Source: an uncultured virus (IMG/VR IMGVR_UViG_3300008108_000029)
Lineage: Duplodnaviria; Heunggongvirae; Uroviricota; Caudoviricetes
IMG/VR virus record: IMGVR_UViG_3300008108_000029
Length of the DNA stretch: 64,000 bases
Reading direction: 5' to 3' (one strand)
The notes under the pieces: generated by a model
The model's database searches: none
What the model saw: only the letters and a program-made list of their open reading frames with translations
Told to the model about the DNA's origin: nothing
Shown here: positions 12,108-64,000 of the stretch, one piece after another
Position numbering within the stretch: the stretch's first letter is position 1
How the letters are laid out: each line of letters opens with the position of its first letter
Program-made: the position numbers and the translations under genes

Positions 12108-12296
12108 ATGGACTTTAGAAAAGAATATAAATATTTAGGTGAAAAATTTTTTGAACTCACTCACGATTTAACTATGCGTGATTGGAAAAAAATAAGGGAT
12201 AAGACGTATTGGCAATCTGATTTTATGAACAATGATTTAGATAGATTAAGACATAAAATAGAATGTATAAGAGTATGGAGAATGAAAAACAAATAA
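12108..12296 (+). CDS. Hypothetical protein
   Basis: Abutting ORF. Confidence 0.55.
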   Translation: MDFRKEYKYLGEKFFELTHDLTMRDWKKIRDKTYWQSDFMNNDLDRLRHKIECIRVWRMKNK

Positions 12297-25843: not shown

Positions 25844-26025
25844 TTCTTTAATTTGTAAAGAAAGTATTTGTCTTGTTGTTGAATAACTTTGAAAAAATTT
25901 TTTCTATCAAAGTCGTTTAGTTCACTTCTTTTTCTTTTGGCTTCTTCAATAGTGTCAAAAGGAGGGTAGTCAGTAACTATAAACAACCCTTTTACTGTTT
26001 TTATTGCGAATTTTGGCTCAATCAT
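25840..26025 (-). CDS. Small hypothetical protein
   Basis: 61-aa ORF filling the gap between two polyproteins. Confidence 0.5.
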   Translation of the reverse strand: MIEPKFAIKTVKGLFIVTDYPPFDTIEEAKRKRSELNDFDRKNFFKVIQQQDKYFLYKLKN

Positions 26026-26076
26026 AGACCGTAGATTTTCACAAAAATACTATTTATTTTAAATTTGAAAAAAAAT

Positions 26077-30379: not shown

Positions 30380-30420
30380 AAAATTGCCTATGAGTTGTAT
30401 TTATTTTAAATTTGCTAACA

Positions 30421-48796: not shown

Positions 48797-49279
48797 ATGA
48801 ACCCACAAGACGAAAGGGAACTTTATGAACTGATACAAAACTTGAGCAAAGGCATTAAAAAGCACGGAATCAGGAAAGTAATAAAGTCCCTCAAACAAAT
48901 CAATCTAATGGACGAAACTGATGTCAATTATGTTTTAATTGACCATATAGAACAATCAGTTTGCACTAAAATTGGTGTTCCAAGAGATGAACTTTACGGT
49001 TTTGCTTCAAGAGGAGAAATAACCATAGCAAGAAAGTTTTGCATCCTCCTAATTAGAAAATTCTCTCCATACATAAGCGATGAAATTTTGGCTAATCATT
49101 ACAACAGAAGTCGTCAGGTTGTTCACAATACAGAAAAAGAGTTTAGATTATTGAGAAGTGGTAAGCAGAATAAATTTCAAATTGATTTCTTACAAATCTT
49201 TAAAGATTTAGAAGTTGAAATTGAAAAGTTTGTAAATCAGTCCAAAAAAAATAATAAAAAATTAAGTAATGGAAGATAA
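48797..49279 (+). CDS. DnaA domain-IV-like HTH protein
   Basis: VC...GV..DEL....R.EI..AR.....L.R.......LA..YNR....V. Confidence 0.6.
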   Translation: MNPQDERELYELIQNLSKGIKKHGIRKVIKSLKQINLMDETDVNYVLIDHIEQSVCTKIGVPRDELYGFASRGEITIARKFCILLIRKFSPYISDEILANHYNRSRQVVHNTEKEFRLLRSGKQNKFQIDFLQIFKDLEVEIEKFVNQSKKNNKKLSNGR

Positions 49280-50559
49280 AAGAGGCAGAGGTCGTCCAAA
49301 AAAAAGTATGATTGATTCATCAAAGATTTTTGATGATGATGATGATGATTTAAGAAATATACTTAAAAATAAAAATAAAGAATCAAAAAGCCCTATTGAC
49401 GAAGATTATGATATTGATAATGATGCTTTAAACGATATTGAAGAATTTGAAAGTCAAGACGGGGTAAATGATATTCCAAAAGAAGATTTTAACCCTTTGA
49501 ATGAACCTGTTATGCAAAGGTCTTACACAGGTGGAATGACAGGCACAGGAATAAATCCTTATACACTTCAAGAAAAAATAATTGAAGAACCTAAATATAA
49601 TCCGAATCGTTCTGCAAAGATTGAAGTAGATAATGACTTAATTAATCCAACTTCTAACGGCAGCAATGGGGGTAATGGAGGTAATGGAGGTAATGGAGGT
49701 AATGGTAAAAAATCAAATGATATACCTAATGATATTCCTAATGATATACCACCTAATAACGATACATCAAGTAATAATGCTTCATCCGAAGCATCAAAAG
49801 TTGAAAATGACAATCTAAAAGAATTATCTGCCAAAGAAAAAAGAGAGGCGATAGAAAAAAACAGCAGATGCTATTCTACTTGCATATCGTAATTATATCC
49901 CTTTACCTTTTGTATATTTTTCTAAATACGATGATAAGAAGTTAAGAAAGTTACATAACTCTGATGAAATTGATTTAGATGCTCCAATAAAAAATGACGG
50001 AACAACCTTTAAAGAATATACAAAAGAGTTTAACTCAACAGTAGAGCAAACATTTCAAGTATCAGACGAAGAAGTTGCAGCAATAAAAGACCCATTAGTA
50101 GATGTATTAATGGAAAAAGACGTTGCTCTTACTCCGACACAGAGATTAGGTTTAACATTAGGTCAGTTATTAGTTTCTAAAGTTATGGTTGCTGTCAAGT
50201 TTTTATCTGATAAAAAAAGTGATATTGATGATATGAAGCAGATGCACAAAAAAAATGTAGAGTTGAGAGAAAAAGAGATAGAATTAGAGCAGGAAAGAAT
50301 TGATTTAGACAGGCAAAAGCAAAGAGATAAACAAAGAGAAATTGAATTAGAAGTAAAAAGAAGGAAACAAGAACAAGAAAAACAAAAACAGTATCAAGAA
50401 GTAGAAGTTGAAGAAGAAGAAGAAGAAGAAGAAGATGATGACATTGAAATTGAAGATGACGATGATGTAATTGAATTTGAAGATGATTCAACAAATCAAG
50501 ATAATGATGATGATGATAATCAACCTACCCTTGATGACGCAATAAATGATATTCCTTAA
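49269..50559 (+). CDS. Acidic protein with N-terminal AT-hook, split by a +1 frameshift in A7 (49855-49861)
   Basis: Removing one A gives an open frame IEKTADAILLAYRNYIPLPF...DVLMEKD that joins ORF 50110-50559. Confidence 0.8.
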
Positions 50560-50561
50560 AT

Positions 50562-51428
50562 ATGAGAGAGCCACAGTTAATCATAGCAACAGGAACTAAA
50601 GGTGTTGGTAAAACATTTAAAACTTGTCAGTTAATACAGGACTATTTAACTCCTGATATTAAAATTGGTAAAAAGCCAAGAAAGGTTTTGATATTTGATG
50701 CTAATGGTGAGTATTCTAATGAAGAACTTGTTAAAAACAATTTCAGATTTAGAACTAAAGTTCTTGCTCTTAAAGATTTAGAGGAGTGGACAAAACAATC
50801 ACGAGTTGAGGTTAGAAGGATTTTACCTGTTGATGCAAACGGAAATGAAGTAGGAACTGAAAAGTATCCCGAAATACTTGGAGTTATTCTTCATTATTTT
50901 AGAGGAGGTATGCTGATTCTTGAAGATATTAACAAATATCTTGTTGAAACGAGAGATGCAAAAGTTATTGGTGCATTGACAACGAATAGACATAGGGATT
51001 TAGATATTTATATTCATCTTCAATCACTTGCTCCACTTACAACAAGAATGTGGCAAAATGCTAATGTGATTAGATTTCACTATCAAATGGACGACATTGA
51101 TAGATACAAAGGCAGGATACCTAACTATGAGTTATTTAAAATAGCACAAATGATGGTTAATGAAAAATATTACAAAGGAGAGGAAAGATTCTTTTGTTAT
51201 GTAATGAATCAACTTAATAAAATCAAAGGTGCTTTTTCAAAAAAAGATTTTATAGTTGCTTGTAGGCAGTATCTTGAACTTCATCCGTCAAAAGTAAAAT
51301 CTGTTATGCAGAAATACGGAAAAGGTTATGAAGCAAAAGTAAAAGCAATGAAAGAATGTATTTTTGATTTATATAAAAAGTATTACGGAAACCCAAAAGT
51401 TGAAAAAAAGAAAATAGTAAAACAGTAA
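50562..51428 (+). CDS. FtsK/HerA-superfamily ATPase, A32/P9/Zot-like (candidate genome-packaging ATPase)
   Basis: GTKGVGKT; VLIFD..GEY; LILED; TNRH.DLDIYIHLQS; MWQNANVIRFH. Confidence 0.72.
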   Translation: MREPQLIIATGTKGVGKTFKTCQLIQDYLTPDIKIGKKPRKVLIFDANGEYSNEELVKNNFRFRTKVLALKDLEEWTKQSRVEVRRILPVDANGNEVGTEKYPEILGVILHYFRGGMLILEDINKYLVETRDAKVIGALTTNRHRDLDIYIHLQSLAPLTTRMWQNANVIRFHYQMDDIDRYKGRIPNYELFKIAQMMVNEKYYKGEERFFCYVMNQLNKIKGAFSKKDFIVACRQYLELHPSKVKSVMQKYGKGYEAKVKAMKECIFDLYKKYYGNPKVEKKKIVKQ

Positions 51429-51431
51429 AGT

Positions 51432-52388
51432 ATGATGATGTTATCAATTTATGTAGCGAAGTATTTTGTAATAGGTCTTATTGTGATAGGAATTATTATG
51501 TATTTGTATCCAATAATTAGGTCAAAGATTATTCATTTGTTTGAAGATATAGAAACGGAAGAAACATATTATAGCCATTTTAAAGAAGAATATGGTAGAT
51601 TATTAAGATTTACAATTACAAATTCATCCAATAGTATAATTGAGTGTGATTTGTGCGATTTAAAACAAGGTAATGGATACACTTTTTTTACTTCAGATGG
51701 CGACTATGAAAAACTTAAAGAATACCTAAAATCTTATACTTTAAATGTTTCATCAACATCAGTAAGATATAACCATAAGAATTGGCAAAAAGACGTTATT
51801 AAAAACAAAGTGTATAATCCGTTTCAGCAGTTATCAACTCCTATCTTAATTGCTATGGATGATTTTGATACTGTTCACTCTATCAACGATAATATAGTTA
51901 TATCAAAAAAACCTTATGAATTTAACTTTTTCAGCACAGTTTTAGTTAAGTTGAATCCCTATGAAACTAAAGATATTACTCTTTTAGTTACTGATGAACA
52001 AAATGCGAAACATACTGATAATAAGGATAAAGTAAAAACTGCTATTACAATCAAAAATAATTCAAGTATAAAGCAAAGAGTTAATTTGTTTGATGATAAA
52101 TATTCAAACCCTGAAATAGAGTTTAATTCAATATTTGATATTAACTCTTATGACGACATTGTTTTGTTTTTCAATCAAAATCCACTTGTAGCAAAATACA
52201 TAAATATTTATGCTCCTAATACAGAATCAGTAGTGTATCAACTAAATTTTGAAGAACATAGATTAGTTCCTCCTGATTACTTACAGCATAAAGATTTTTA
52301 TAAAATAAACCTTAAAGACGAAACTTTTATTGCATACTTTTGCATAGAAGTAGAACCAAATCAAGAAATAATAGTATCCTTTAAATAA
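51432..52388 (+). CDS. Membrane-anchored protein with two homologous beta-rich domains
   Basis: N-terminal TM; FTITNSS...DYEKL and ITIKNNS...SYDDI halves, ending LNPYE..DI.L and VEPNQEIIV. Confidence 0.6.
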   Translation: MMMLSIYVAKYFVIGLIVIGIIMYLYPIIRSKIIHLFEDIETEETYYSHFKEEYGRLLRFTITNSSNSIIECDLCDLKQGNGYTFFTSDGDYEKLKEYLKSYTLNVSSTSVRYNHKNWQKDVIKNKVYNPFQQLSTPILIAMDDFDTVHSINDNIVISKKPYEFNFFSTVLVKLNPYETKDITLLVTDEQNAKHTDNKDKVKTAITIKNNSSIKQRVNLFDDKYSNPEIEFNSIFDINSYDDIVLFFNQNPLVAKYINIYAPNTESVVYQLNFEEHRLVPPDYLQHKDFYKINLKDETFIAYFCIEVEPNQEIIVSFK

Positions 52389-53074
52389 TGACAGCAAAAA
52401 TACTTTTCAAATTCGCAACTCGTTCAAGACCTGTTAAGTGTCTTGAAGGATTAAGAAACATCACAAGTAGAGTAGCAGACAAAGAGAATTATAAAATTCT
52501 AATTTCTGCTGACGAAGATGATTTATCAATGAATAATGATTTAATAAAACAATCAATTCAGCCATACATAGATTCAGGGAAAGTATCTTTGGTATATGGT
52601 AGAAGCACATCTAAAATTGATGCTATAAATAGGGATTTAGAAACTGAAAATGATTGGCATATTTTAGTAAATTTCTCTGATGATATGGAATTTGTAGTTG
52701 ATGGATTTGATAATACTATAAGATTACATTTCGGAATACATTTTCCTGATTTCAATGGTAATATGCACTATAACGATGGTTTTACTGCAAACAAACTATG
52801 CACTTTATCAATCATAGGAAAAACTTACTTTGACACTATACTTAAAAAGAAAATTTATCATCCTGATTACAAATCATTATTTTGCGATAATGAATACACA
52901 GAGGTTGCAAGAAAATTAAATAAAATTCAGTATTATGATATGATTTTATTCAGGCATAATCATCCTGCTAATATTGGAACTCCTATGGACGAACAGTATA
53001 AGCATACTGAAGGATTTTGGCATATAGATAGCCAAACATACGAAAGAAGAAGAAGTATAAATTTTGAATTATAA
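52388..53074 (+). CDS. GT-A glycosyltransferase
   Basis: ATRSRP, D.DD, SKIDAINR, FSDD, FCDNE, H.HP. Confidence 0.8.
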   Translation: MTAKILFKFATRSRPVKCLEGLRNITSRVADKENYKILISADEDDLSMNNDLIKQSIQPYIDSGKVSLVYGRSTSKIDAINRDLETENDWHILVNFSDDMEFVVDGFDNTIRLHFGIHFPDFNGNMHYNDGFTANKLCTLSIIGKTYFDTILKKKIYHPDYKSLFCDNEYTEVARKLNKIQYYDMILFRHNHPANIGTPMDEQYKHTEGFWHIDSQTYERRRSINFEL

Positions 53075-53704
53075 TTGATTATGTATTACACGCAAAACAA
53101 CGAAGAACAAATATTTATTGATTATTTTAAAAATCAAAACCCAAGTGAATTATGTGTTCTTGATATAGGTGCTAATGATGGAAAAACATTTAGTAACTCT
53201 TTAAGATTAATTGAATTAGGTTGGTCAGCAATTTTAATAGAACCAAGCCCAAGAGCATTTGAAAGATTATCAGCATTACACTCAAATAACACAAAAGTAA
53301 CTTGCTTTCCTTTGGCTATTTCAAATAGTAATGGTGTGGTAACTTTAAGAGAGAGTTCTTCATTGATAACCCAAAACGATGTCGCATTAGTATCATCTCT
53401 TAAACAGGAAGAAACTGTTAAGTGGATGCAATCTAATGTTAGATTTCAAAATGTTGAGGTAAACTCAAAGGATTTTAAAACATTCTATGAAACTTGCCCT
53501 ATAAAAAAGTTTGATTTAATATCTATTGATGTAGAAGGTTTTGATTATGACGTTTTATCCCAAATAAATTTGGAATCAGTAGGTTGTAAATGCCTTTGTG
53601 TTGAGTTCAATGGTAAAAACAAAGATGGGTTTGTTAATTATGTTAATCAGTTCGGTTTGAGATTAATTAGTGAAAATCCTGAAAATTTAATCTTCATAAA
53701 ATAA
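53075..53704 (+). CDS. FkbM-family methyltransferase
   Basis: LDIGANDG..SNS, IEP, SIDVEG.D. Confidence 0.9.
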   Translation: MIMYYTQNNEEQIFIDYFKNQNPSELCVLDIGANDGKTFSNSLRLIELGWSAILIEPSPRAFERLSALHSNNTKVTCFPLAISNSNGVVTLRESSSLITQNDVALVSSLKQEETVKWMQSNVRFQNVEVNSKDFKTFYETCPIKKFDLISIDVEGFDYDVLSQINLESVGCKCLCVEFNGKNKDGFVNYVNQFGLRLISENPENLIFIK

Positions 53705-53709
53705 AAAAT

Positions 53710-54321
53710 ATGCAAAATAAAAATTATAGTAAAACAGATTTCCTAAAATTTTGGGGTGAAAATGGATACGTTGAAACTTGGGATGGTCATAAGCATAATT
53801 GGTCTGATGAAATAAAATTATTGGTAAAAAATCAATTAGGTGCAAATAAAGACAAGCAGGTTTTAGAAATTGGATGTGGCGGAGGTTATTGGACTAAATT
53901 TCTTTGCGAAAATTCAAAAAATGTTATAGGAATAGATTTAATACCTAAATCACCTTTAAATTTAGAAAATTTTAGATATATTGAAAATGATAATTTACAA
54001 TTTAATTGTAACAAAATAGAAGATGAGAGTATAGATTTTGCTTTTTCTTTTGGTGTATTTTGTCATTTATCATCAAGTGCTTGTGAATCATATTTAAAGG
54101 ACACATTAAGAGTATTAAAAAAAGGAGCAACTGCAATATTTATGTATTCAGATGCTGAAGGGTTAAAAAAGTTTTATAATGATGATAAATTTTTTGCATC
54201 TATGATTTATGGTGAGTGTAATGATTATTCGGATTTTATGCCAATAATAAAAAAATATGATTCAGGTTGTAAAAAAATATTAGATTTCAGAGATTTATTA
54301 GTATTAATTACAAAAAGATGA
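53710..54321 (+). CDS. Class I SAM-dependent methyltransferase
   Basis: VLEIGCGGG, VF.H, RVLKKG. Confidence 0.9.
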   Translation: MQNKNYSKTDFLKFWGENGYVETWDGHKHNWSDEIKLLVKNQLGANKDKQVLEIGCGGGYWTKFLCENSKNVIGIDLIPKSPLNLENFRYIENDNLQFNCNKIEDESIDFAFSFGVFCHLSSSACESYLKDTLRVLKKGATAIFMYSDAEGLKKFYNDDKFFASMIYGECNDYSDFMPIIKKYDSGCKKILDFRDLLVLITKR

Positions 54322-55019
54322 AGCATTGTATTGTTAATTTTTCTGATAATCGCTTTATAAAAGGTCAAGACCGACTTCGTGAATCATTAATTTCAAATTA
54401 TCAAGGTGATTTTATAAGTTTTAATGATTTTAGTCAAGTAGGTTCAAAAACACATTTAGAAGTGCCATATCAATTTAAAGTTTTTGCTATTAATAAAGTA
54501 AGAGAAATGGGATATGATATTGTTCTTTACTGTGATGCAAGTATGTATGCTATTAAAAATATAAATCCAATTATAGATTACATAAATGAAAATGGTTATC
54601 TGTTAGAATATTGTAGAAATTTTCAAACAGGTAATATATGGACTTCTGCTCAATTTTCAACTGATTTGTGCTTGAGTGAATTTAATATAACAAGAGATGA
54701 AGCAGATAAGATTCCATTACATTCAGCAGGTTTTACGGGATTAAATTTTAAAAATGAAATTGCTAATAAATTTTTTGAAGAATGGCTTATTCGTGCAAAA
54801 GAAGAAAAGGCATTTATTGGAGATTGGAGTAATGCTAATAAACAATGTTCACAGGATTCAAGATGTTTAGGGCATAGACACGACCAAACTTGTGCGTCTA
54901 TAATTGCACATAAATTAGATATGAATAGAATAAATCCATATTTCATGCAGTATGATGAGGTTGAAAATAAATGGAATAATGAAGAAACAACAATTTTTAA
55001 ATGTAGAGGAATATTTTAA
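54318..55019 (+). CDS. Putative nucleotide-diphospho-sugar transferase
   Basis: PY.FK, LYCDAS, HRHDQT. Confidence 0.7.
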   Translation: MKHCIVNFSDNRFIKGQDRLRESLISNYQGDFISFNDFSQVGSKTHLEVPYQFKVFAINKVREMGYDIVLYCDASMYAIKNINPIIDYINENGYLLEYCRNFQTGNIWTSAQFSTDLCLSEFNITRDEADKIPLHSAGFTGLNFKNEIANKFFEEWLIRAKEEKAFIGDWSNANKQCSQDSRCLGHRHDQTCASIIAHKLDMNRINPYFMQYDEVENKWNNEETTIFKCRGIF

Positions 55020-55027
55020 AATAAATT

Positions 55028-55612
55028 ATGATTTTAACAGTAACAATAGCAAGTGTAAGCATAAGAAAAAATATGCTTGAAAATCTTTTGTCTGAACTAT
55101 ATAATCAAATTGAAACATATAATCTAAAAGATGAGGTAGAGATATTGGTTGATGATGATGATAAAAGATTTTTAGGAACAAAAAGAAAAATTATGCTATC
55201 AAAAGCAAAAGGCATATTTACTTGTGCTATTGATGATGACGATATGGTAAGTAAAGATTATTTAAAAAAAATAACAGATGCTATAAAAAAAGATGAAAGC
55301 GTAGATTGTTTAGGAATAAATGGAATAATTACTACTAATGGATTAAATCCAAAAAGATGGGTAATATCTTGTCATTATGAGGATTGGTTTGAGGAAGATG
55401 AAACATATTATAGAACTCCTAATCATATTTGTCCTATCAAAACGGAATTAGCAAGGTTGGCAGATTTTGATGATGTGTCTTGGAATGAAGATTATCCTTT
55501 TTCTCAAAGAGTTAAAAAATTTTTAAAAAGAGAAACTGTGATTGATGAGCCAATATATCATTATAAATTTAACACGGAATCATCATTAAATAACTATCAA
55601 AATGAACAATAA
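55028..55612 (+). CDS. GT2 glycosyltransferase
   Basis: G.KR..., IDDDD, R.PNH..PI, ED. Confidence 0.85.
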   Translation: MILTVTIASVSIRKNMLENLLSELYNQIETYNLKDEVEILVDDDDKRFLGTKRKIMLSKAKGIFTCAIDDDDMVSKDYLKKITDAIKKDESVDCLGINGIITTNGLNPKRWVISCHYEDWFEEDETYYRTPNHICPIKTELARLADFDDVSWNEDYPFSQRVKKFLKRETVIDEPIYHYKFNTESSLNNYQNEQ

Positions 55613-56213
55613 TGTAACTTATGTAGGTCTTTCTCGTTCAGGAAGTCATTGGATAAGATTGGTTCTTGAACATTATATGGGTGGAAATAGTCCTTTGTCA
55701 AATTTTTTAGGTTCTCCAATAAACACTAATAATTTTATAACAACTCACGATTTACAACTTGATTTTGTAGCAGATTACGTTATTTATCTTTATAGAAATC
55801 CAATAGATTGTATTTATTCAAACTTAAAATATGATGGAATAGATACCAATTTAGATTGTATATCAAAAATTGATTACTATTTAGATATTTGGATTAGGCA
55901 TATCCAAAAGTGGATATATGATGAAAATTTCACAAAAGATAAAGTAATACTTTGTTACGAAAAATTAAAAAATGATTTTAATAATGAATTTTCAAAACTA
56001 CTTATATTTTTGAATTTGCAAGTAAATACTGAAAAAATTGAAGAAGGGAATAATATTTATACTAAAAGTAAAATTAAAAAAATAGTTCGTGATGATAGAG
56101 TAATAAATGACGAATTAAATTATGAAATTTATAGAGAATTATTTACTCAAAAATATAAAAATTATATATATGATAAGTTACCAATTAATCATAGGAAATT
56201 ATTAAATCAATAA
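55602..56213 (+). CDS. Sulfotransferase
   Basis: RSGSHW (5'-PSB), RNPID..YS (3'-PB), YEKL. Confidence 0.8.
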   Translation: MNNNVTYVGLSRSGSHWIRLVLEHYMGGNSPLSNFLGSPINTNNFITTHDLQLDFVADYVIYLYRNPIDCIYSNLKYDGIDTNLDCISKIDYYLDIWIRHIQKWIYDENFTKDKVILCYEKLKNDFNNEFSKLLIFLNLQVNTEKIEEGNNIYTKSKIKKIVRDDRVINDELNYEIYRELFTQKYKNYIYDKLPINHRKLLNQ

Positions 56214-56225
56214 AAAATAAATAAA

Positions 56226-56900
56226 ATGACCGACAAACAAAAATTAGACATTATAGCAGGAGTTCTTTATTCAACAAAAGAAACACAGATGAGTAGTTAT
56301 AATTTGGGTAAGTATGTAGTAGAAAATAATATTGAGGGAGATATTATTGAGTGTGGTGTCGCTTTGGCAGGAAATTTCGCCTCTATGATTTTAGGCGTAG
56401 TATCGCAACCAAGTGGAAAAGATAGAAAGTTTTGGGGATTTGATTCTTTTGTAGGGATACAACTTGCAGGAAAAAAAGATACTGAACAAGCAGGAATAGG
56501 AAAAATAACTCATAATACCAATGTCCCTTATGAATCTCTTTTAGTATCAAGTGGAATAACCTCCCACACAAAAGAACAAGTCATAAACAACTTGAATAAT
56601 TGGGGATTAGGAAATTATAATATAGAACTTGTAGGTGGTTGGGTTCAAAACACTATACCAACAGTAAACGATAGAATAAATAAAATATCTATTTTGAGAT
56701 TAGATATGGATATTTACCATCCTACTAAATTCACTTTAGATGCTTGGTGGGATAAGATTTCTGATGGAGGAGTTATTATCATTGATGATTGGGCATTAGG
56801 CGGTGTTAGAACTGCTTGTGAAGAATTTTTTGAAGAAAAAGGTATAAAGCCCCAAATACACACAGTAGAAAACTCAACCCCAACATATTTTTTCAAATGA
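56226..56900 (+). CDS. TylF/MycF/NovP-like sugar O-methyltransferase
   Basis: GDIIECGV, FDSF.G, GW..NT.P, LRLDMD.Y, GGVIIIDD. Confidence 0.9.
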   Translation: MTDKQKLDIIAGVLYSTKETQMSSYNLGKYVVENNIEGDIIECGVALAGNFASMILGVVSQPSGKDRKFWGFDSFVGIQLAGKKDTEQAGIGKITHNTNVPYESLLVSSGITSHTKEQVINNLNNWGLGNYNIELVGGWVQNTIPTVNDRINKISILRLDMDIYHPTKFTLDAWWDKISDGGVIIIDDWALGGVRTACEEFFEEKGIKPQIHTVENSTPTYFFK

Positions 56901-57478
56901 TACTATCAATTTTAATACCTACTGTTCCTCAAAGAGCAAATTTTTATTTTGAATTATGTAACGAAATAAATAATCAAATTCATAGTTGTAATGCTTATGG
57001 AAATGTTGAAATAGTTACTGATTCTGCGCCTATTGGAACAAAAACAACAGGGAAAAAAAGAAACGATTTATTAAATGTTGCACAAGGAAAATATGTTTGG
57101 TTTATAGACGATGATGATATGATTTTCCCTAATTCTATTAATTTAATACTTTCTGCTTTAGAAAAAAATCCTGATGCTTTAGCAATAAATGGAATTATAA
57201 CAACAAATGGAGTAGATAAAAAGCAATGGTTTATTTCAAAAGATTTTGAATATGTTTCTGATACTTCAAGAGGTTATGAGATTTACTTACGACCAACGAA
57301 TCATATAACACCAATTAGAAAAGAAATAGCAAAATCAGTTACGTTTGAAGATAAAAGTAATTTTGAGGATTATGCTTATTGTATGGAATTAAAAAGATTA
57401 AAATTAATAAATACAGAAATAGAAATTAAAGAACCAATATATCATTATAGATACTTGAATTATGCAAAACTATACTAA
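56897..57478 (+). CDS. GT2 glycosyltransferase (paralog of 55028)
   Basis: ILIPT, GKKRN, FIDDDD, RPTNH, FED. Confidence 0.85.
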   Translation: MILSILIPTVPQRANFYFELCNEINNQIHSCNAYGNVEIVTDSAPIGTKTTGKKRNDLLNVAQGKYVWFIDDDDMIFPNSINLILSALEKNPDALAINGIITTNGVDKKQWFISKDFEYVSDTSRGYEIYLRPTNHITPIRKEIAKSVTFEDKSNFEDYAYCMELKRLKLINTEIEIKEPIYHYRYLNYAKLY

Positions 57479-58112
57479 AACAGCAGTCGTAACATTTGCT
57501 AATGGTAATTATTTGAATCTTGTAAAAAGACAAGAAAATGAATTTAAAAAGCATTTAGATTGCGACTATTTTTGCTTTACAGATTTTTCACAAGTAGGAA
57601 GTCCAAGTCATATTGAGCATCCATACGCATTTAAGCCATACTCAATTAAAAAAGTTTTAGATTTAGGTTATACAAATATATTGTGGGCAGATTCTCCTGT
57701 TTATGCCATATCAAATGTTTCTTATATTTTAGAGCATATAAAAAGAGAAGGAATATTATTAATTGATAATATAGGTTTTTCTGTTGCAAGTCATACAAAC
57801 GATAACTGTCTAAACTATTATGATATAAATAGAGAACAAGCAAAAAATATTCCTATGGTTATGGCTTGTTTTATGGCTTTTAATTTTACTAATTTTAAAT
57901 GTATAAATATTTTTAATGAGTATTATCAGGCAGCAACCAATGGAACTTTTGTAGGAAGTTGGGATAATCATAGGCACGACCAATCTGTAATATCAATAAT
58001 TTCCCATAATCACGAAATAAGTTTGCAAAGTCCTGAAAAAATTATTTATTATCACAATGAGCCAAATCATACTTGGAGAAATACACCACTAATTAGTAAA
58101 AGAATTTTATAA
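57462..58112 (+). CDS. Putative sugar transferase (paralog of 54318)
   Basis: PYAFK, LWADS, HRHDQS. Confidence 0.7.
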   Translation: MQNYTKTAVVTFANGNYLNLVKRQENEFKKHLDCDYFCFTDFSQVGSPSHIEHPYAFKPYSIKKVLDLGYTNILWADSPVYAISNVSYILEHIKREGILLIDNIGFSVASHTNDNCLNYYDINREQAKNIPMVMACFMAFNFTNFKCINIFNEYYQAATNGTFVGSWDNHRHDQSVISIISHNHEISLQSPEKIIYYHNEPNHTWRNTPLISKRIL

Positions 58113-58120
58113 CAAACAAT

Positions 58121-58921
58121 ATGATTAATACAATTTGCATAATGGTTGGCTCTTACAGGAACTTAACCACATTAACATCGGCTACATTGATGTTGCATCC
58201 CGAAGTGCAGGTAGTTAATCATAAATATTCATTCAATGAGAATTGCGATACAGATTTTTTAGTTTCATATTCAAAAAATAAAGTAGATAATTTTATTAAA
58301 AAGATTATTGAAATAGCAGGTGATGAAGTGTCAGTTTCGGGAGATGGTGGAGTTATTACTAAATCACACGCTTTTTTGGAACATAAAATTATGAGAGATG
58401 TTTTTAATAATAGGTATTCAAATACTAACAAAAAAAATATAAAATCTATAATATGGAAAGAATCGCATCGCAATACAAATCTTATTCGTAAAAATGATGT
58501 TGATTTATTAATATCAAAAGATATTAGGTTTAGGTTTTTTTTACCAATAAGAAATCCAATGGATTGTGCAATGTCAAATATGAATGGATATAAAAAATAT
58601 TTTGGTGCTGACACAGAAAGTAAGGAAGATGTATTGTTTGGTCTTTTTGAAATTTACAGTTGGTTTTTTGAACTGCAAAAAAAATATCCTGAACGCTTTA
58701 TGTATTTGTTTGAAAATGATTTTAAAGAAAATCTATTAAAATTAGAAAATTTTTTAAAAATACAACATAATAAGGATTGGTATAAAGATGTAAATGATGT
58801 TTGGGAATTAAAAAACAATTACAAACACGAACAAGATTTTATAAATCTATATAAATCTCTTGTGAGTAAACTAAAAGATGATTATATAAAAGATAAGTTT
58901 AATATTTTTTTAAACAGTTAA
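58121..58921 (+). CDS. Sulfotransferase-like protein
   Basis: G.YRNLTTL...L..HPEV; RNPMD.A.S. Confidence 0.6.
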   Translation: MINTICIMVGSYRNLTTLTSATLMLHPEVQVVNHKYSFNENCDTDFLVSYSKNKVDNFIKKIIEIAGDEVSVSGDGGVITKSHAFLEHKIMRDVFNNRYSNTNKKNIKSIIWKESHRNTNLIRKNDVDLLISKDIRFRFFLPIRNPMDCAMSNMNGYKKYFGADTESKEDVLFGLFEIYSWFFELQKKYPERFMYLFENDFKENLLKLENFLKIQHNKDWYKDVNDVWELKNNYKHEQDFINLYKSLVSKLKDDYIKDKFNIFLNS

Positions 58922-58924
58922 AAC

Positions 58925-59269
58925 ATGAACCTAAAAGAAAAACTAAAAGACACAGAAAAAGTTATCACAATGTTACAAGATAACTATGGCGTTTTACAAA
59001 GAGGAGGATTTGATATGATATGTCCTATTGTTCCACCTATTCAAGTAAAACAAAGGACACAAAATCAAATCACGGGTGCTGTTCACGAACAAATAGGATT
59101 GCAAAAAAATTCTTGTAACACAAACTGTCCACTAATGGAGATAGGCGATAATCACGTTGTATTACATTGTGGGGGACATCCAATCAAGCACGAAATATCA
59201 AAGATTATTGATACAAATGAAGAAAAAGAAAGTAAAATAATCGGTTTAGGGTTAGGAGGTCAGGCGTGA
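58925..59269 (+). CDS. Hypothetical Cys-containing protein
   Basis: CP...CNTNCP...C. Confidence 0.6.
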   Translation: MNLKEKLKDTEKVITMLQDNYGVLQRGGFDMICPIVPPIQVKQRTQNQITGAVHEQIGLQKNSCNTNCPLMEIGDNHVVLHCGGHPIKHEISKIIDTNEEKESKIIGLGLGGQA

Positions 59270-59487
59270 GTTTAATAAAAATAAGATTTAATAACGATTG
59301 CAATGATGGAGTTAGTTGGTGGAGAGCAATTATTGATGGAGTTGAACATCATTTATCTGAAATAGTTATTAACACTAATAGTAGGACTACTAAAGATTAT
59401 TTAGAAAGTAAAAATGAATACAAGTGGCACATTACTGTTGAAAGTTCTAACTATAAAATTCACAATGGCATACTAACTATTAATTAA
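59266..59487 (+). CDS. Hypothetical protein
   Basis: GTGA-coupled ORF. Confidence 0.6.
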   Translation: MSLIKIRFNNDCNDGVSWWRAIIDGVEHHLSEIVINTNSRTTKDYLESKNEYKWHITVESSNYKIHNGILTIN

Positions 59488-59533
59488 AATTTTATCTTTG
59501 CAAAAACCAAATAAAAACCAAAAAATAAACACT

Positions 59534-60079
59534 ATGACACCACTACAATCAATGAAAAAAAATTCAGAGTATGTAAAAATCTTATTAAAAGATTTACAAC
59601 GTAAAACTGAAATTGACCAAAAAGTAGATTACTACAAAGCAATTCTAAAAGCATACGATTTAAAATCAGAAACACTTTCCAAAAAGATAGAAGTTCTTGA
59701 GATTAAGCATAACAATAGCAAAGAAAACTATGATTATGGTTATGATTTAAGTTGTCTAATTATCATCAAGATAGAGTTAGATGACGCTATATTTGAAAAG
59801 AAGAAATTTTTTGAAATGTGGCTATCAAGAGGTAAGGAATACGATGACAAGTTTAATATCTTATCAAAAGATTGCAACGATAACTTTGATGAAGTTCAAA
59901 ATAAAGCAAAAGAATTAGCAGAGAAAAATGTAAAACTAAAATCTCATATTGAAAAATTTGAGAAAGAAGAAAATCCATCTCAACGTCTTAAAAACGAATA
60001 TTATCTACTTATTAAATATGAAGTTTACAAGGCAACAGAAAAGATTATAGGTTTAGCATTTGAAGATTATTATAAATAA
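59534..60079 (+). CDS. Hypothetical coiled-coil protein
   Basis: ATG 59534 downstream of TATCTTTG 59493-59500. Confidence 0.65.
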   Translation: MTPLQSMKKNSEYVKILLKDLQRKTEIDQKVDYYKAILKAYDLKSETLSKKIEVLEIKHNNSKENYDYGYDLSCLIIIKIELDDAIFEKKKFFEMWLSRGKEYDDKFNILSKDCNDNFDEVQNKAKELAEKNVKLKSHIEKFEKEENPSQRLKNEYYLLIKYEVYKATEKIIGLAFEDYYK

Positions 60080-60090
60080 TTAACTTGTTA

Positions 60091-60180
60091 ATAGTCGGGG
60101 GTGTTTAACCTAAACTAATGTTAGTCGGTTTTAGCAGAGCATCCGATGGAGTAAGGAAACCATCTATAAAAACCGACTAT
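60091..60180 (+). ncRNA. Candidate structured cis-regulatory RNA
   Basis: GC-enriched intergenic segment with several complementary stems. Confidence 0.45.
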
Positions 60181-60200
60181 GAAATTCTAAAATTAAAAGA

Positions 60201-60824
60201 ATGACACTTAAAGAATTTGAAAAAATATTTTCAAACGAAATAGTAAATCACTATTTAGAAAATCAAAAAACATTTGATGCTCACGGGATTCACGGATGTT
60301 TGCATATATCAAGGTCGCTTATAATTTGCAGATGGATTTCAAAACAACTCAATGAAAAAGGACTTACTAATGATATTGATAAAGTAAGTTACGCAGTATC
60401 ATTTCACGATTCGGGTAGAAAAGCCAATGGTATAGATTATTGGGAATGGCAAAGCAAATTAAATTGCCTGAACTATTTAATACAAAAAGGCATACCTGAT
60501 GCTGATTACATTTCATCTTTGATTGTAAAAAAATCGGATATGAACCACACTACAAACGATTTTCTTTGCCTTCACGATACAGATGTTTTAGAAATAATAC
60601 GACCATCAACGGGTATAGGTATTCAGGGATTCAATAGAGAATATCTAAAATTAAAACAAACAATAAACTATGATATAATATTCGGAGAGGTTGTTACTTT
60701 TATATACGAAACCGAAGGCATAAAGCAACAATTCTTTGATAAAGATTGCTTACTAAATCTAATAAATTACTTGGAAGTTAATAAAAGTAGATTCCCAAAT
60801 CTTTATGACTGCACCAACTCATAA
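60201..60824 (+). CDS. HD-domain protein
   Basis: IHG..H..R, FHDSGR, D.W, HDTD.LE..R. Confidence 0.75.
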   Translation: MTLKEFEKIFSNEIVNHYLENQKTFDAHGIHGCLHISRSLIICRWISKQLNEKGLTNDIDKVSYAVSFHDSGRKANGIDYWEWQSKLNCLNYLIQKGIPDADYISSLIVKKSDMNHTTNDFLCLHDTDVLEIIRPSTGIGIQGFNREYLKLKQTINYDIIFGEVVTFIYETEGIKQQFFDKDCLLNLINYLEVNKSRFPNLYDCTNS

Positions 60825-61326
60825 TCAAAATTTTAATGAATGGTTTAAGGGTTCAAAAGCAGTAGATGGTTTTGGAAATCCTACTATATTTTATCATAAA
60901 AGTCGTTCAAAAGAGATTTTTAATAGTTTTACTGATAATATTCAATATTTAAAAAATCCTTTTAATGATTGTGGTGGCATTTACTTTGTCGGAAAAGGTA
61001 GTGAACCAAATATAGATTATATTGCTGATGGCATAGGATTTTATGTTTATTTGAAGTGCTTGAACCCACTAATAATTTGTGAAAAAATTGTTTTTAATAA
61101 TCATACACTAAAAACAACTATTGAGATTAATGATATGTTAGGTAGAAAATATCAAATGATAGACATAAGCAAACCTTTCGTAAATAAATGTAAAGAAGAA
61201 AATTATGATTCAATTTTTATTTATAGTCATAATTCTTACAATCAATATGTGGTTTTTGAGAATAAACAAATAAAGAGCATAGAAAACAATGGTCTTTACC
61301 AAAATGATAATAATATATTTTCCTAA
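60805..61326 (+). CDS. Stand-alone ART-PolyVal-like protein
   Basis: FNEWF.GSK.VD..G.P...YH, GIYF, YD.I, YVVF...QIKS..N.G. Confidence 0.7.
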   Translation: MTAPTHNQNFNEWFKGSKAVDGFGNPTIFYHKSRSKEIFNSFTDNIQYLKNPFNDCGGIYFVGKGSEPNIDYIADGIGFYVYLKCLNPLIICEKIVFNNHTLKTTIEINDMLGRKYQMIDISKPFVNKCKEENYDSIFIYSHNSYNQYVVFENKQIKSIENNGLYQNDNNIFS

Positions 61327-61880
61327 TGAAATTATCAGTTTTAATTCCATCTCTACAAAGCAGAAGTCATTTTCTTGAAAGAGTTTTAGATTGCTTAAAA
61401 AAGCAAATAGAAAATAACAGTTATCAAGAAGTAGTAGAGATTAAAACACTTGTAGATAATGGAGGGCAAACAATAGGTCAAAAAAGAAACACGCTTAAAG
61501 CAAATGCCAATGGCGAGTATATTTGTTTTGTAGATGATGATGACTTACTACCTGACTATTATTTACAAGAAATATTAAGCAGATTAAATAGTGGATACGA
61601 TATTATAACTTTCTACGTTGAGCATATTGTAGATGGCTCATATAAAAAATTAATTTGCCCTCATTTGCATATAGATAATCAAGAAATTAAAGGTTGTTTA
61701 TTTTGGACTAATATGCTTCACCTTTGCCCACATAAAAAAAGCATATCTGATTTAGTTCAATTTCCAAATATAAATTTTTGTGAAGATTTAGAATATAGTA
61801 AGGCAATCAAAGAATATTGCAAAAACAATTCATTCATAGAAAAAATTATGTATCACTATGAATATAAATCTAATAAGTGA
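61326..61880 (+). CDS. GT2 glycosyltransferase
   Basis: LSVLIPS, GQKRN, FVDDDD, ED. Confidence 0.85.
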   Translation: MKLSVLIPSLQSRSHFLERVLDCLKKQIENNSYQEVVEIKTLVDNGGQTIGQKRNTLKANANGEYICFVDDDDLLPDYYLQEILSRLNSGYDIITFYVEHIVDGSYKKLICPHLHIDNQEIKGCLFWTNMLHLCPHKKSISDLVQFPNINFCEDLEYSKAIKEYCKNNSFIEKIMYHYEYKSNK

Positions 61881-62513
61881 TTAGCAATCAACTGAAGAAT
61901 TAGGAATGTGGCAAACTTTGTATTCGCTATTTTCAATCTTTCTGTGATTTGTATTAGCCATAAGTTTATGTATAAAGTCCCAATCGTGTCCATATCCATT
62001 ACAACCTGACCAACTTATTTGAGGAATATTTTTATGTGCTATTGCTGAAGTTCCTATACTACCCCTTTCTAATTTAGTTTCCCTAACAACCGAACTTAAA
62101 ATTCTATTTTCGGTAGGGTGAAATCTATAAATGATTGTGTCATTAAAATAAATCCAATCGTAATTTTGTATTGAACTTGCTATAATTTGAAGATGATTGT
62201 TTCCGAAAAAATCATCAGTATCAAGATAGCATATTATATCTCCTGTCGCTTTTTTGCAACCATAATCTCTTACTAACCCTGAAAAATATTCTTGCTTTGT
62301 TAAACCGAATAATTTTATTTCATTAGATAAATGTTTTGTTGTTTCTGCAATAGTGATAGGGCATCCATCACTTACAATTATCAATTCTTTGTTTGGATAC
62401 GTTTGTGATTTGAAAGAATTTACAGCCCTATTGAATTTATCAACTCTATTCTTTGCAGCATACATATAATCACCAAGAAAAGAAGCCATTATTACTGATA
62501 CTTTAACAGACAT
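61881..62513 (-). CDS. GT2 glycosyltransferase
   Basis: VSVIM, IIVSDG, YLDTDD, GHDW. Confidence 0.88.
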   Translation of the reverse strand: MSVKVSVIMASFLGDYMYAAKNRVDKFNRAVNSFKSQTYPNKELIIVSDGCPITIAETTKHLSNEIKLFGLTKQEYFSGLVRDYGCKKATGDIICYLDTDDFFGNNHLQIIASSIQNYDWIYFNDTIIYRFHPTENRILSSVVRETKLERGSIGTSAIAHKNIPQISWSGCNGYGHDWDFIHKLMANTNHRKIENSEYKVCHIPNSSVDC

Positions 62514-63123
62514 ACATTTTGTATTTAAAATTAATAAAATCGTCTTTGTATATTTTGTTTACCAAACGGTATGATTTTAAATCATAGTAATCTTGAAAGC
62601 ATATTTTTCTATTGCTTCTATTTGTGAATGGAATATTTGAAAATTCCAAATTCAAATTCAATAGAATTGTAGATAAACTTGATGTATGATTATCATTTGA
62701 TAAAGTTTCAAATTTGAATATGTGATTTGTTTTTATAGCGTTATTAACACTTAAAAAATCAGTTTGCGTTCTGTAAAACGTAGAATAATTTGTTTCTTCT
62801 TTTTTAAATCCAACGTAATAAAGCCAATTAATAAACTCATAGAAAGATAAATTTTTTATAGCATAATAATCTATAATATTAGGGTCAGACATTATATTCT
62901 CATATATAGATACAACTAAATCATAAGGATTTCTTACATAAGAAAAAATGTTGTAATTTTTTATATAAGGATAAAAATTTATAGCAGTATCTAACGTGCA
63001 AATGTTTCCATAAATTAATCTTAAATCATCTACTTGTTTACTTATAACTTCTTTTACTGTTGTTCCTCCTGTTCGGTGTATATGTATAAAACAAAAATTT
63101 TTACTATCGCTTATTACTGACAT
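62503..63123 (-). CDS. Sulfotransferase family 2 protein
   Basis: FIHIHRTGGTT, VRNPYD..VS.Y, FE.L, Y..DF..F.Y. Confidence 0.85.
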   Translation of the reverse strand: MSVISDSKNFCFIHIHRTGGTTVKEVISKQVDDLRLIYGNICTLDTAINFYPYIKNYNIFSYVRNPYDLVVSIYENIMSDPNIIDYYAIKNLSFYEFINWLYYVGFKKEETNYSTFYRTQTDFLSVNNAIKTNHIFKFETLSNDNHTSSLSTILLNLNLEFSNIPFTNRSNRKICFQDYYDLKSYRLVNKIYKDDFINFKYKMYVC

Positions 63124-63141
63124 TGTTGATTATTATTTACA

Positions 63142-63615
63142 TTATAAATCTTTTTGTTGTTTTGTAACAACAATATTTTTAAAAATTTTATTCTTTATTA
63201 ATACAGATACTTCATTTGCTATATCTAATGCTTCTCTACCCGTTGTGTCTATTGGTAAGAAATATTTATCAGGTTTTTCATATCCTTCAACAAAATATTT
63301 TTCTCTACCTCTTATCTCACTTGTAAAAATATAGCACTCAAAAACTTCTGTCCTTTCTTTGAGTTCCTCTCTCAAATCTTTATATGGAGATATTAAAGAT
63401 ATAATTGGCACAAACTCTTTTTTTTCAAGAAATAATGCAATATTGTAAGCAGTTTTTATATTATTTCTTCTTCCTGTTTCAGAGTAATCTTTGTTATTAA
63501 GAATGTCCCTTAATTCATCTCCATCAATGTTAATTGAATTAGGAATTAATTTCAATAATTCTTTGGAAATAGTTGTTTTTCCTGCTCCTGCTTGTCCTGT
63601 TAAATTTATAATCAT
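63142..63615 (-). CDS. cysC: Adenylyl-sulfate (APS) kinase
   Basis: TGQAGAGKTT, IDGDELR, DYS..GR..N, ISPY, YEKP. Confidence 0.88.
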   Translation of the reverse strand: MIINLTGQAGAGKTTISKELLKLIPNSINIDGDELRDILNNKDYSETGRRNNIKTAYNIALFLEKKEFVPIISLISPYKDLREELKERTEVFECYIFTSEIRGREKYFVEGYEKPDKYFLPIDTTGREALDIANEVSVLIKNKIFKNIVVTKQQKDL

Positions 63616-63618
63616 AAT

Positions 63619-63822
63619 TTATTTTTGTTTATTAATTTTTATTTTATCCCAAATGTATTCGTATAAATAGTAAGTGAAAATTTTTATTATAAAGTCAGAT
63701 ATACCTATGAATAAACCTAATGATGCCTGTCCTGTAATAAAAAAAGAAATTAAAAAAGTTATAAAAGAGGAATATATCCTGTATGTAAATGATTTAATAA
63801 AGTAAATTATATGTGTTTTCAT
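63619..63822 (-). CDS. DUF2061-like membrane protein
   Basis: KSFTYRI...YY.YE.IW. Confidence 0.75.
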   Translation of the reverse strand: MKTHIIYFIKSFTYRIYSSFITFLISFFITGQASLGLFIGISDFIIKIFTYYLYEYIWDKIKINKQK

Positions 63823-63825
63823 TAA

Positions 63826-63999
63826 TTAAGCAGATATTCCACCCATATTAATTTCTTTTCTTAATAACAACTGCGTCCAATCAGAGTTATTATGTTCACA
63901 CAATATACTTGTGTCAATATACTTTTGTATTCCTAACGCATCTGTATCAATAGCAAAGAATCCGTCAGGGTGCATAACTAAACCTTTTTCGTGTCTAAA
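63826..63999 (-). CDS. Partial CDS, probably a glycosyltransferase C-terminus
   Basis: Manually translated ...HPDGFFAIDTDALGIQKYIDTSILCEH...ISA*; continues beyond the window. Confidence 0.55.
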   Translation of the reverse strand, partial: FRHEKGLVMHPDGFFAIDTDALGIQKYIDTSILCEHNNSDWTQLLLRKEINMGGISA

Positions 64000-64000
64000 T

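Follow-up and report, generated by a model that had tools for sequence, protein, structure and literature searches.

The 64,000-nucleotide stretch of DNA analysed here (uncultured-virus record IMGVR_UViG_3300008108_000029 of IMG/VR; hereafter the window) encodes a stand-alone ATPase that we take, with moderate confidence, to be the genome-packaging motor of an uncultured and probably tailless freshwater virus, one with a jelly-roll shell around a lipid membrane and probably with a host among the Bacteroidota. The ATPase resembles the viral packaging proteins B204 and P9 and is the only candidate motor in sight; the late genes encode a protein, c2, with a predicted jelly-roll fold, and a block of proteins rich in putative membrane segments. 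A tailless, membrane-containing lineage is the simplest account of these features taken together. We propose more tentatively, and with doubt slightly outweighing conviction, that the virus belongs to an undescribed lineage widespread in freshwater, with a membrane, a single-jelly-roll capsid and an A32-like motor, whose members range from prophages of ~24 kb to genomes of more than 80 kb. Loci and genomes of relatives are cited below by our own numbers (L and G) where coordinates or comparisons require them.

The ATPase and its closest relatives

The ATPase gene (Table 1) starts 2 bases downstream of the stop codon of the preceding open reading frame (ORF). In an index of 5.8 billion proteins, 192 of 854 candidates matched its product at an expectation value (E) <= 0.001, and the 120 listed of these 192 are 47-100% identical to it and almost all 260-310 amino acids (aa) long. 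An exhaustive search of 1.84 billion representatives extended the family to 440 representatives at E <= 0.001, each standing for a cluster at 50% identity, with 152 of them at E <= 1e-30. Because its database homologues are so numerous, the ORF is a conserved gene and no chance frame. Across an alignment of 67 sequences, residues G16, K17, E50, D122 and Q154 are invariant, and R85, R86, E121, H144, D148, N166, R171 and H173 are conserved in at least 90%.

Standard profile libraries say little about this protein. Pfam returned a partial match to the HerA central domain (DUF87, E 5.7e-6) confined to residues 11-69, and PHROGs returned no match, although four of six homologues matched the C-terminal half of phrog_2666 (‘terminase large subunit’) at E ~1e-5. 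When the single sequence was compared with PDB sequences by phmmer, only noise resulted. A profile of the whole family reached HerA around Walker A (E 3.4e-4) and B204, the packaging NTPase of STIV2 (E 2.2e-3). In the B204 alignment NRH...LQS stands opposite NRHAGLGLILSTQ, and the NRHRDLDIYIHLQ motif falls on the NRH...STQ stretch of B204. Aligned by hhalign, the family profile matched P9 of PM2 (E 6.2e-4) and P9 of PRD1 (E 2.3e-3); these matches are weak, yet the Walker A motif, the VLIFD-N-EY strand, the Walker B motif and RH...Q each fall into register. HMMER, set against the ORFs of PM2 and PRD1, recovered the P-loop only (E 1.1).

The predicted fold is more informative. An AlphaFold model built from the 67-sequence alignment (predicted local distance difference test, pLDDT, 95.4; predicted template-modelling score, pTM, 0.90) was compared with the PDB by Foldseek, and the first ten ranks are all B204 chains (E 2.2e-8 to 3.1e-7), followed by the N-terminal domain of Zot, VirB4 and HerA. 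Judged from the model, the protein lies closest to a solved viral packaging NTPase and not to cellular HerA, VirB4 or FtsK, with a lead for B204 over the cellular relatives that is real but small. Among predicted viral structures (BFVD), the best matches include a Corticoviridae NTPase and the ATPase of Haloarcula virus PH1, as well as A32-like ATPases of mimi-, medusa-, tupan- and poxviruses, virophage and adintovirus ATPases, and adenovirus IVa2.

In the order of its motifs (Walker A, Walker B, then RH...hhhhQ), in size and in fold, the protein is an A32/P9/B204-like ATPase. It is a small single unit, below the size of VirB4 and devoid of the extra N-terminal and barrel domains of HerA. We conclude that it is a minimal FtsK/HerA-superfamily ATPase whose nearest relatives are the packaging ATPases of jelly-roll viruses, with a putative role in packaging. 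Zot-like ATPases of filamentous phages have an N-terminal P-loop domain followed by a transmembrane segment, and are encoded in small phage genomes. No hydrophobic segment was found in the window ATPase by hydropathy scan, and in this it is unlike Zot.

An earlier reading of the window, made from its letters without database searches (the sequence-only reading), had described a stand-alone 288-aa ATPase with an N-terminal Walker A motif, a LILED Walker B motif, an RH...hhhhQ motif and the string MWQNANVIRF. All are present in the translation, the last at residues 163-172. Its assignment of this pattern to FtsK/HerA packaging ATPases agrees with the lead of B204 in the Foldseek comparison and with the P9 motifs aligned by hhalign. 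Of the more specific affinities it had named, those to PRD1 P9 and HerA were recovered as the profile matches given above, and that to Zot fell away.

One competing explanation is that the protein is the HerA-like part of an anti-phage defence or DNA-modification system carried as cargo (of the DndH, TdpAB, HerA-Sir2 or HerA-DUF type). PADLOC, applied to the ATPase, its neighbours and three homologues, gave marginal P-loop matches only (best E 9e-4). The HerA and DndH chains matched by the model are longer (373-585 residues, against 288) and have the extra N-terminal and barrel domains that the ATPase lacks. Neither the ATPase nor its neighbours show the multi-domain build of cellular or defence HerA proteins, or a partner of the nuclease, Sir2 or Dnd kind; its fixed partners are instead a helix-turn-helix (HTH) protein and a protein of another family, c1, described below, and a glycosyltransferase is a further neighbour. 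Moreover, the ATPase is conserved as core, not cargo, across elements from 24 to more than 80 kb. We accordingly regard a defence role as very improbable.

The late genes: a predicted jelly-roll protein and a membrane-rich block

The late genes of the window virus lie beyond the end of the window. A 40-base string from that end led to a metagenome contig, L044, whose reverse complement matches window positions 53941-64000 at 99.98% over 10,060 bases and then runs on for 9,980 bases. The continuation encodes one more glycosyltransferase and then, starting ~1.2 kb past the window end, a 291-aa homologue of c2. Next come a c7-family protein and another ten proteins from the membrane-rich late block. 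The contig behind L044 has 6,555 more bases on the continuation side. Adding 64,000, 9,980 and 6,555 bases, the genome of the window virus measures at least 80.5 kb, in agreement with the longest contig recorded for an identical ATPase (82.9 kb).

Two late families, c2 and c13, are common to the large elements and to a small prophage of Glaciecola that is described in the next section. The c2 protein (~245 aa) is the first gene product of the Glaciecola late operon, and its gene adjoins that of the ATPase in some loci (downstream in L009, L010 and L016, upstream in L013). Identity is 67-96% among the 120 c2 matches listed of 675, and 55-67% among the matches listed for c13 of the same virus, its own 100% record left out. 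The c2 copy of the window virus is 55% identical to one in L041, a further copy of the family on the 375-kb contig of L013. Some elements have several copies: L008 has two, and among the four members of L013 two are adjacent short ORFs; one copy has been seen so far in the window virus.

An acidic, disordered N-terminus and a core of ~160 residues make up c2. Its AlphaFold model (pLDDT ~87-95 over residues 60-215) is a beta-sandwich of eight to ten strands with one helix. In an unbiased VIA-align comparison, tailless icosahedral viruses account for 12 of the 20 highest rows with their capsid or penton proteins, namely a PR772 virion chain (124 residues), nepo- and comovirus coat proteins, phiCjT23, faustovirus, PBCV-1, STIV A223, a geminivirus, FLiP, EhV-201 and a satellite virus; the remainder comprise three other phage virion parts and five non-viral rows. 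The model thus predicts a single jelly-roll protein. From its position, its conservation and the lack of alternatives, we infer that c2 is the major capsid protein. The ESM Atlas gave no usable match to c2, and hhalign against PM2 P2 (E 0.28) and PRD1 P31 (E 0.35) identified no capsid homologue.

The c13 protein (~262 aa) carries an invariant HExxH followed downstream by E...AD, with copies at L025:7150-7935, L042:1277-2131, L035:18428-19222 and elsewhere. Because of this motif, c13 is a predicted zinc metalloprotease; in the ESM Atlas it fell among unnamed viral clusters, with a sub-threshold metallopeptidase lead that the HExxH later supported. One possible role is in virion maturation, as a protease of a kind not known among jelly-roll viruses.

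Putative membrane segments set the late genes apart. Hydrophobic segments, sought with a Kyte-Doolittle scan over 19 residues at a threshold of 1.6, are present in 10 of the 11 proteins after c2 in the continuation, compared with 4 of 46 window ORFs before 44 kb; in relative G1 the figures are 15 of 26 late proteins and 14 of 93 others, and in the Glaciecola late operon 12 of 16. In the Glaciecola late operon only c2 (240 aa), the predicted protease (264 aa) and two proteins of 164-205 aa lack one, so few and so small a set that it leaves little room for a double jelly-roll protein. The abundance of hydrophobic late proteins suggests that the virion contains a membrane.

Relatives, the Glaciecola prophage and distribution

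An alignment-based scan confirmed 12 ATPase relatives among 59 pattern matches in IMG/VR contigs of 22-84 kb, and 12 further relatives among 31 pattern matches in species genomes; a scan of viral contigs with the single ATPase sequence gave 25 pattern matches, none of which was confirmed. Ten of the 12 relatives in species genomes carry the labels Bacteroidota, Bacteroidales, Flavobacteriales, Saprospira, Parvicellaceae, Vicingaceae or Ignavibacteria, and the remaining two come from the complete chromosome of Glaciecola amylolytica and from a bin labelled ‘archaeon’. Neither the 50,697 phage records nor the 72,556 plasmid records searched by tblastn contained a match to the ATPase, and the phage records contained none to c2. 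The closest relative with extended synteny is L013, on a 375-kb contig of a Bacteroidota bin, whose ATPase is 53% identical to that of the window; a cluster of glycosyl-, methyl- and sulfotransferases follows the ATPase there too, with the late genes further downstream. A search for GTP_EFTU gave seven matches in the assembly of L013 and none on the 375-kb contig. The sequence-only reading had named Bacteroidota as hosts, and the labels of these assemblies speak for it. The window virus probably has a Bacteroidota host, as judged from its relatives.

The smallest member of the lineage seen, and one from a sequenced isolate, is the element of ~24 kb in Glaciecola amylolytica (L035:9648 to L021:13109). 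Host genes and then a large serine recombinase (L035:9648-11291) mark one end, and a CI-like repressor (L021:12711-13109) marks the other. Between them the element carries a patatin, CHAP and GH108 lysins, AbiC-like and PLD-like cargo, a 648-aa DUF6908 protein, the HTH-c1-ATPase module, and the late operon with c2 and c13. A copy from Vicingaceae (L023) adjoins a tyrosine integrase and ordinary housekeeping genes. Given the lysins, the repressor, the integrases and the membership of relatives in IMG/VR, the elements look like temperate or lytic bacterial viruses rather than plasmids.

This evidence bears on a second competing explanation, in which the element is a non-viral mobile element (integrative and conjugative element, or plasmid) and the ATPase a translocase for transfer or partition, of VirB4, coupling-protein or Zot type. 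Pfam scans of the window and its relatives contained no relaxase, ATPase of VirB4 size, coupling protein or type IV secretion system component. The blank search of plasmid records, the several endolysin-type genes, the CI-like repressor, the predicted jelly-roll protein, the twelve relatives in IMG/VR virus contigs and the lack of a Zot-like hydrophobic segment likewise argue against it, and we consider a non-viral element improbable.

Of 22 sequencing runs listed, 20 contain the stretch around the ATPase; the runs belong to 12 studies and are mostly labelled freshwater or lake. None of the runs listed as containing it was an RNA run. The lineage is thus abundant enough to appear in the runs of 12 studies.

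Two observations on relatives stand apart from these points. The 69-kb IMG/VR contig of G003 carries an exact inverted repeat of 2,123 bp (L030:1-2123 and L033) at its ends, which IMG/VR records as an inverted terminal repeat. Each copy holds an IS1595-family transposase and an HTH gene, and the repeats are more likely to be copies of an insertion sequence (IS) than genome termini; for this reason protein-primed replication from inverted terminal repeats was dropped as a proposal. At L030:9566-13500, a DnaB-type helicase gene apparently contains an intein (DnaB_C and intein splicing domains) and adjoins an IS605 OrfB/TnpB-type gene.

Is the virus a tailed phage?

Among the 63 ORFs of the window, Pfam and PHROGs identified no terminase, portal, HK97 capsid or tail gene. 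Three incidental ‘head/packaging’ labels arose, from a NUDIX protein matching a portal-fusion PHROG (E 8.6e-5), a match to an endolysin-labelled PHROG (E 3.8e-5), and the P-loop of an APS kinase matching a small-terminase PHROG (E 0.009). Nor did any terminase, portal, HK97 capsid, sheath, tube or tape-measure family appear when the scans took in six loci (132 ORFs), the continuation (12 ORFs), the flanks and late regions of four relatives and, with Pfam only, 79 of the 81 ORFs of one 69-kb IMG/VR contig (two piece-boundary ORFs left out). The relatives returned lysins and a few weak matches only; weak PHROG labels in late regions read ‘head morphogenesis’ and ‘spanin’ (E ~1e-3). PF03237 was absent from all five viral records searched, compared with its presence in 5 of 14 control genomes. 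The combination of TerL, portal and HK97 capsid protein that marks Caudoviricetes was, in short, not found at sequence level in large contigs that are possibly incomplete.

The search for another motor was equally unrewarding. Strict Walker A strings occur in the ATPase, DnaB, a MoxR-like protein, the helicase, polyvalent proteins and APS kinase, with three isolated instances in unannotated proteins, and a GK[ST] scan of 125 late proteins from five elements found no N-terminal P-loop.

According to a third competing explanation, the virus is a tailed phage (Caudoviricetes) whose head and tail genes are too divergent to recognize or lie outside the stretches at hand, with the ATPase serving in segregation, replication or some other translocation together with the HTH protein. 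Several points favour it or otherwise weigh against a tailless virus. CheckV rates the IMG/VR contigs as 37-61% complete, the large contigs are fragments or of unknown completeness, and terminal direct repeats were not found in two full IMG/VR contigs; head and tail genes could therefore lie elsewhere. In relative G10, a protein encoded between two of ~800 aa (L042:16724-17221) matches a ‘tail assembly protein’ PHROG at E 3e-9, and a 400-aa late protein of L042 has a GxxxxGKT string in mid-chain (residues 229-236). A double jelly-roll capsid protein was not identified, by Pfam and PHROG scans and with one late protein, c2, folded. The membrane-protein counts come from a simple scan rather than a dedicated predictor, and the proposed link between the ATPase and packaging is drawn from sequence, model and context. 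The BFVD matches of the ATPase include FtsK/HerA-like ATPases of tailed phages (Bacillus phage G gp155 and Lactococcus phage KSY1 gp088), many tailed phages have relatives of the window's early genes, and the ESM Atlas relatives of c13 are mostly labelled ‘Uroviricota’, albeit automatically. Finally, according to Iyer et al. (2017; PMC5512222), polyvalent proteins of the kind encoded in the window are reported only in phages that use terminase-portal packaging and that lack the internal membrane typical of viruses with a HerA/FtsK-type pump.

Against a tailed phage stands, above all, the Glaciecola prophage, a bounded element of ~24 kb without a terminase, portal or capsid signature or any other P-loop protein, which nonetheless keeps the ATPase, c1, c2, c13 and lysins. 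The scan of 125 late proteins is a further argument against it, as is the dominance of small, putatively membrane-anchored proteins in the late modules. Such dominance is unusual in the head and tail modules of tailed phages. On balance we judge a tailed phage unlikely, though deserving of serious consideration.

The preferred reading of a tailless virus with a packaging ATPase largely follows what had been suggested from sequence alone. The statement that no terminase, portal, HK97 or tail gene is recognizable in the 64 kb holds at the level of Pfam and PHROGs. A jelly-roll protein was also encountered, past the window end in the form of c2, with a capsid role that is itself inferred. The suggestion of an unusually large tailless bacterial varidnavirus is borne out as to the A32-like motor, the predicted jelly-roll protein and a genome of at least 80.5 kb, but not as to a double jelly-roll protein. 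Because the latter was not found, membership of Bamfordvirae is not established.

A model of packaging

If the ATPase works as PRD1 P9 and STIV B204 do, it would dock as an oligomer at one special vertex of a procapsid that is already formed and lined by a membrane. Selection of viral DNA might fall to the HTH protein (c3), c1 might tether the packaging complex to the membrane, and ATP hydrolysis would then drive double-stranded DNA into the shell. The catalytic residues would be K17 of Walker A, E121 and D122 of Walker B and Q154 as sensor, with R85/R86 or R143 as candidate arginine fingers. Large genomes of the lineage would have gained polyvalent effector proteins, a large helicase, a topoisomerase IB and the glycan-modification cluster.

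The putative packaging module and the remainder of the window

Table 1. Features of the window discussed in the text
Feature	Position	Strand	Details and basis
Topoisomerase IB, four polyvalent-type proteins, 1696-aa Strawberry-notch-like helicase, MoxR-like AAA	19650..44356	+	Pfam
c3, DnaA-domain-IV-like HTH protein, first module gene	48797..49279	+	Pfam Bac_DnaA_C, E 1.3e-4, below cut-off
c1, partner gene directly 5' of the ATPase	49269..50559	+	Cluster in 21/25 sources
Putative genome-packaging motor, A32/B204-like FtsK-HerA superfamily ATPase	50562..51428	+	288 aa, ATG start
Walker A GTKGVGKT of the ATPase, residues 11-18	50592..50615	+	Translation
Walker B LILED of the ATPase, residues 118-122	50913..50927	+	Translation
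NRHRDLDIYIHLQ motif of the ATPase, residues 142-154, invariant Q154 at its end	50985..51023	+	67-sequence alignment
318-aa protein, N-terminal hydrophobic segment	51432..52388	+	Hydropathy scan; no Pfam or PHROG match
Glycan-modification cluster between ATPase and late module, ~11 kb	52388..63615	.	Pfam, PHROGs

Clustering by BLAST of 611 proteins, that is, all ORFs of 24 loci and the window, shows a fixed order in which the DnaA-C-like HTH protein (c3) precedes c1 and c1 precedes the ATPase. Within 10 kb on either side, the ATPase is present in all 25 sources and c2 in 16; c1 is found in 21, with a different family of ~305 aa in its place in the other four, and c3 (~150 aa) lies upstream of the ATPase in 14. 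The assignment of c3 is firmer in relatives than in the window, with Bac_DnaA_C matched at E 2.7e-9 in locus L005 and also by the copy in the Glaciecola prophage. Alignment of c1, which is 290-530 aa long across sources, reveals a low-complexity N-terminal part, a conserved domain of ~110 aa, a hydrophobic helix and an acidic tail. A complex prediction for the ATPase and the conserved part of c1 scored 0.00, without controls, and counts neither for nor against binding.

In the window itself a frameshift divides c1 into two ORFs (49269-49892 and 50110-50559); reading frames and tblastn place this frameshift in a run of seven A at 49855-49861. Contigs from all four other sequencing runs compared, from four studies, have one A fewer in this run and a continuous c1 of ~430 aa. 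Since all four are uninterrupted, the split is probably a homopolymer error of assembly, or else a rare variant.

The window is 26-33% G+C, has no tRNA genes, and carries nearly all of its genes between 2.3 and 61.9 kb on the + strand. Upstream of the ATPase, four large proteins of 1637, 516, 923 and 998 aa follow one another at 20930-33408; the first three have an N-terminal ART-PolyVal domain and the fourth combines DUF5661 and NUDIX. ART-PolyVal, DUF5661, NUDIX and LPD23 are the Pfam domains of the polyvalent-type proteins, and a fifth, small ART-PolyVal protein (60805-61326) lies within the glycan cluster. The array of polyvalent effectors here accompanies a HerA/FtsK-class protein as the sole candidate motor. 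Relatives keep the topoisomerase IB, polyvalent proteins and helicase upstream of the ATPase, in identical order in G3 and G10; the common order runs from topoisomerase IB through polyvalent proteins (ART-PolyVal, NUDIX, LPD) and a Strawberry-notch-like helicase of 1,500-1,900 aa to the HTH-c1-ATPase module. The window topoisomerase IB is a separate gene of 426 aa (19650-20930) directly before the first polyvalent protein, and in G003 (L032:13683-18704) topoisomerase IB, ART-PolyVal, NUDIX and DUF3140 are fused in a single protein of 1673 aa.

Two early genes deserve mention. At 12263-13303, a 346-aa protein fuses three Pfam domains, HTH_17 (E 4e-6), sigma-70 region 4 (E 4e-7) and the C-terminal domain of the RNA polymerase alpha subunit (E 4e-11), an unusual arrangement that could serve to redirect host transcription. 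At 7638-8936, a 432-aa protein matches phrog_8203 (E 9e-69) and has relatives in 72 phage records, mostly from Pseudomonas and Bordetella phages and including one uncultured phage of 462 kb (33% identity). From the phage relatives of this protein, it appears that the window shares its early genes with tailed phages but not its late module.

Downstream of the ATPase, the glycan cluster encodes glycosyltransferases, methyltransferases of the FkbM, TylF and class I types, two or three sulfotransferases and an APS kinase. By tblastn, L013 has matches to six of these window genes and L018 to four, and matches also occur in the wider L013/G10 region. The products of the cluster may add methylated or sulfated glycans to the virion or to the surface of the host.

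Comparison with known systems

A full-text search, confined to one library of papers, found no description of the lineage. If the proposed reading is correct, tailless bacterial viruses would have in the window virus their first ‘large-genome’ branch, which would deserve the rank of a new family or order at least. Among viruses with a motor of the HerA/FtsK class it would be the first found with polyvalent effectors, and its own glycan cluster would lie between packaging and capsid genes. A32-like packaging in bacteria would then not be confined to small genomes, which bears on the origin of giant viruses and would offer a bacterial parallel to the growth of small jelly-roll viruses into the giant viruses of eukaryotes. 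The link between polyvalent effectors and terminase-portal packaging, as stated in PMC5512222, would be overturned. Moreover, the lineage is invisible to PHROGs, and viromics pipelines therefore probably mislabel it as tailed phage.

By fold, the nearest known system is B204 of STIV1 and STIV2 (PDB 4kfr, 4kfs, 4kft, 4kfu and 4r2h). Similarity in sequence is marginal (the profile match at E 2.2e-3), and the window ATPase has an extra C-terminal ~60-90 residues, residues ~226-288 lying outside the aligned range. The source of B204 is a small archaeal virus whose capsid protein is a double jelly-roll. As in PRD1 (Tectiviridae) and PM2 (Corticoviridae), according to the annotations of their records, the ATPase gene has genes for small membrane proteins and for capsid proteins around it. 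The genomes of PRD1 and PM2 measure 10-15 kb, compared with at least 80 kb here, and hhalign with c2 detected nothing homologous to their capsid proteins. Metagenomic double jelly-roll viruses of prokaryotes are likewise small, with genomes of ~7-18 kb (PMC5894146).

A Helvetiavirae-like arrangement of single jelly-roll proteins is possible. As described in PMC6356626, Helvetiavirae (Thermus phage P23-77 and the haloarchaeal sphaerolipoviruses) and SSIP-1 combine an A32-like ATPase, an internal membrane and single-beta-barrel capsid proteins, of which SSIP-1 and P23-77 have two types; here there is one jelly-roll family, with paralogues in some genomes only. The ATPase of PH1 is among the best BFVD matches. 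In contrast to Helvetiavirae and SSIP-1, the window virus has polyvalent proteins and a glycan-modification cluster. Hidden Markov models of the ATPase, c2, c13 and c1 found nothing significant among all ORFs of SSIP-1, PM2 and PRD1 (best E for SSIP-1, 1.4). At 43.8 kb, the SSIP-1 genome is the nearest known in size and belongs to the largest cultured membrane-containing tailless phage retrieved; its host genus, Salisaeta, falls within Bacteroidota in the broad sense, the record giving the name of the host strain only.

With the polyvalent-protein phages and conjugative elements described in PMC5512222, the window shares a row of ART-PolyVal, LPD23, DUF5661 and NUDIX domains and a Strawberry-notch-type helicase, and it differs from the phages described there in that its only candidate motor is of the HerA/FtsK class. 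What is new is the unusually large genomic setting, in which a motor of known type is joined to a virion plan that is itself probably known.

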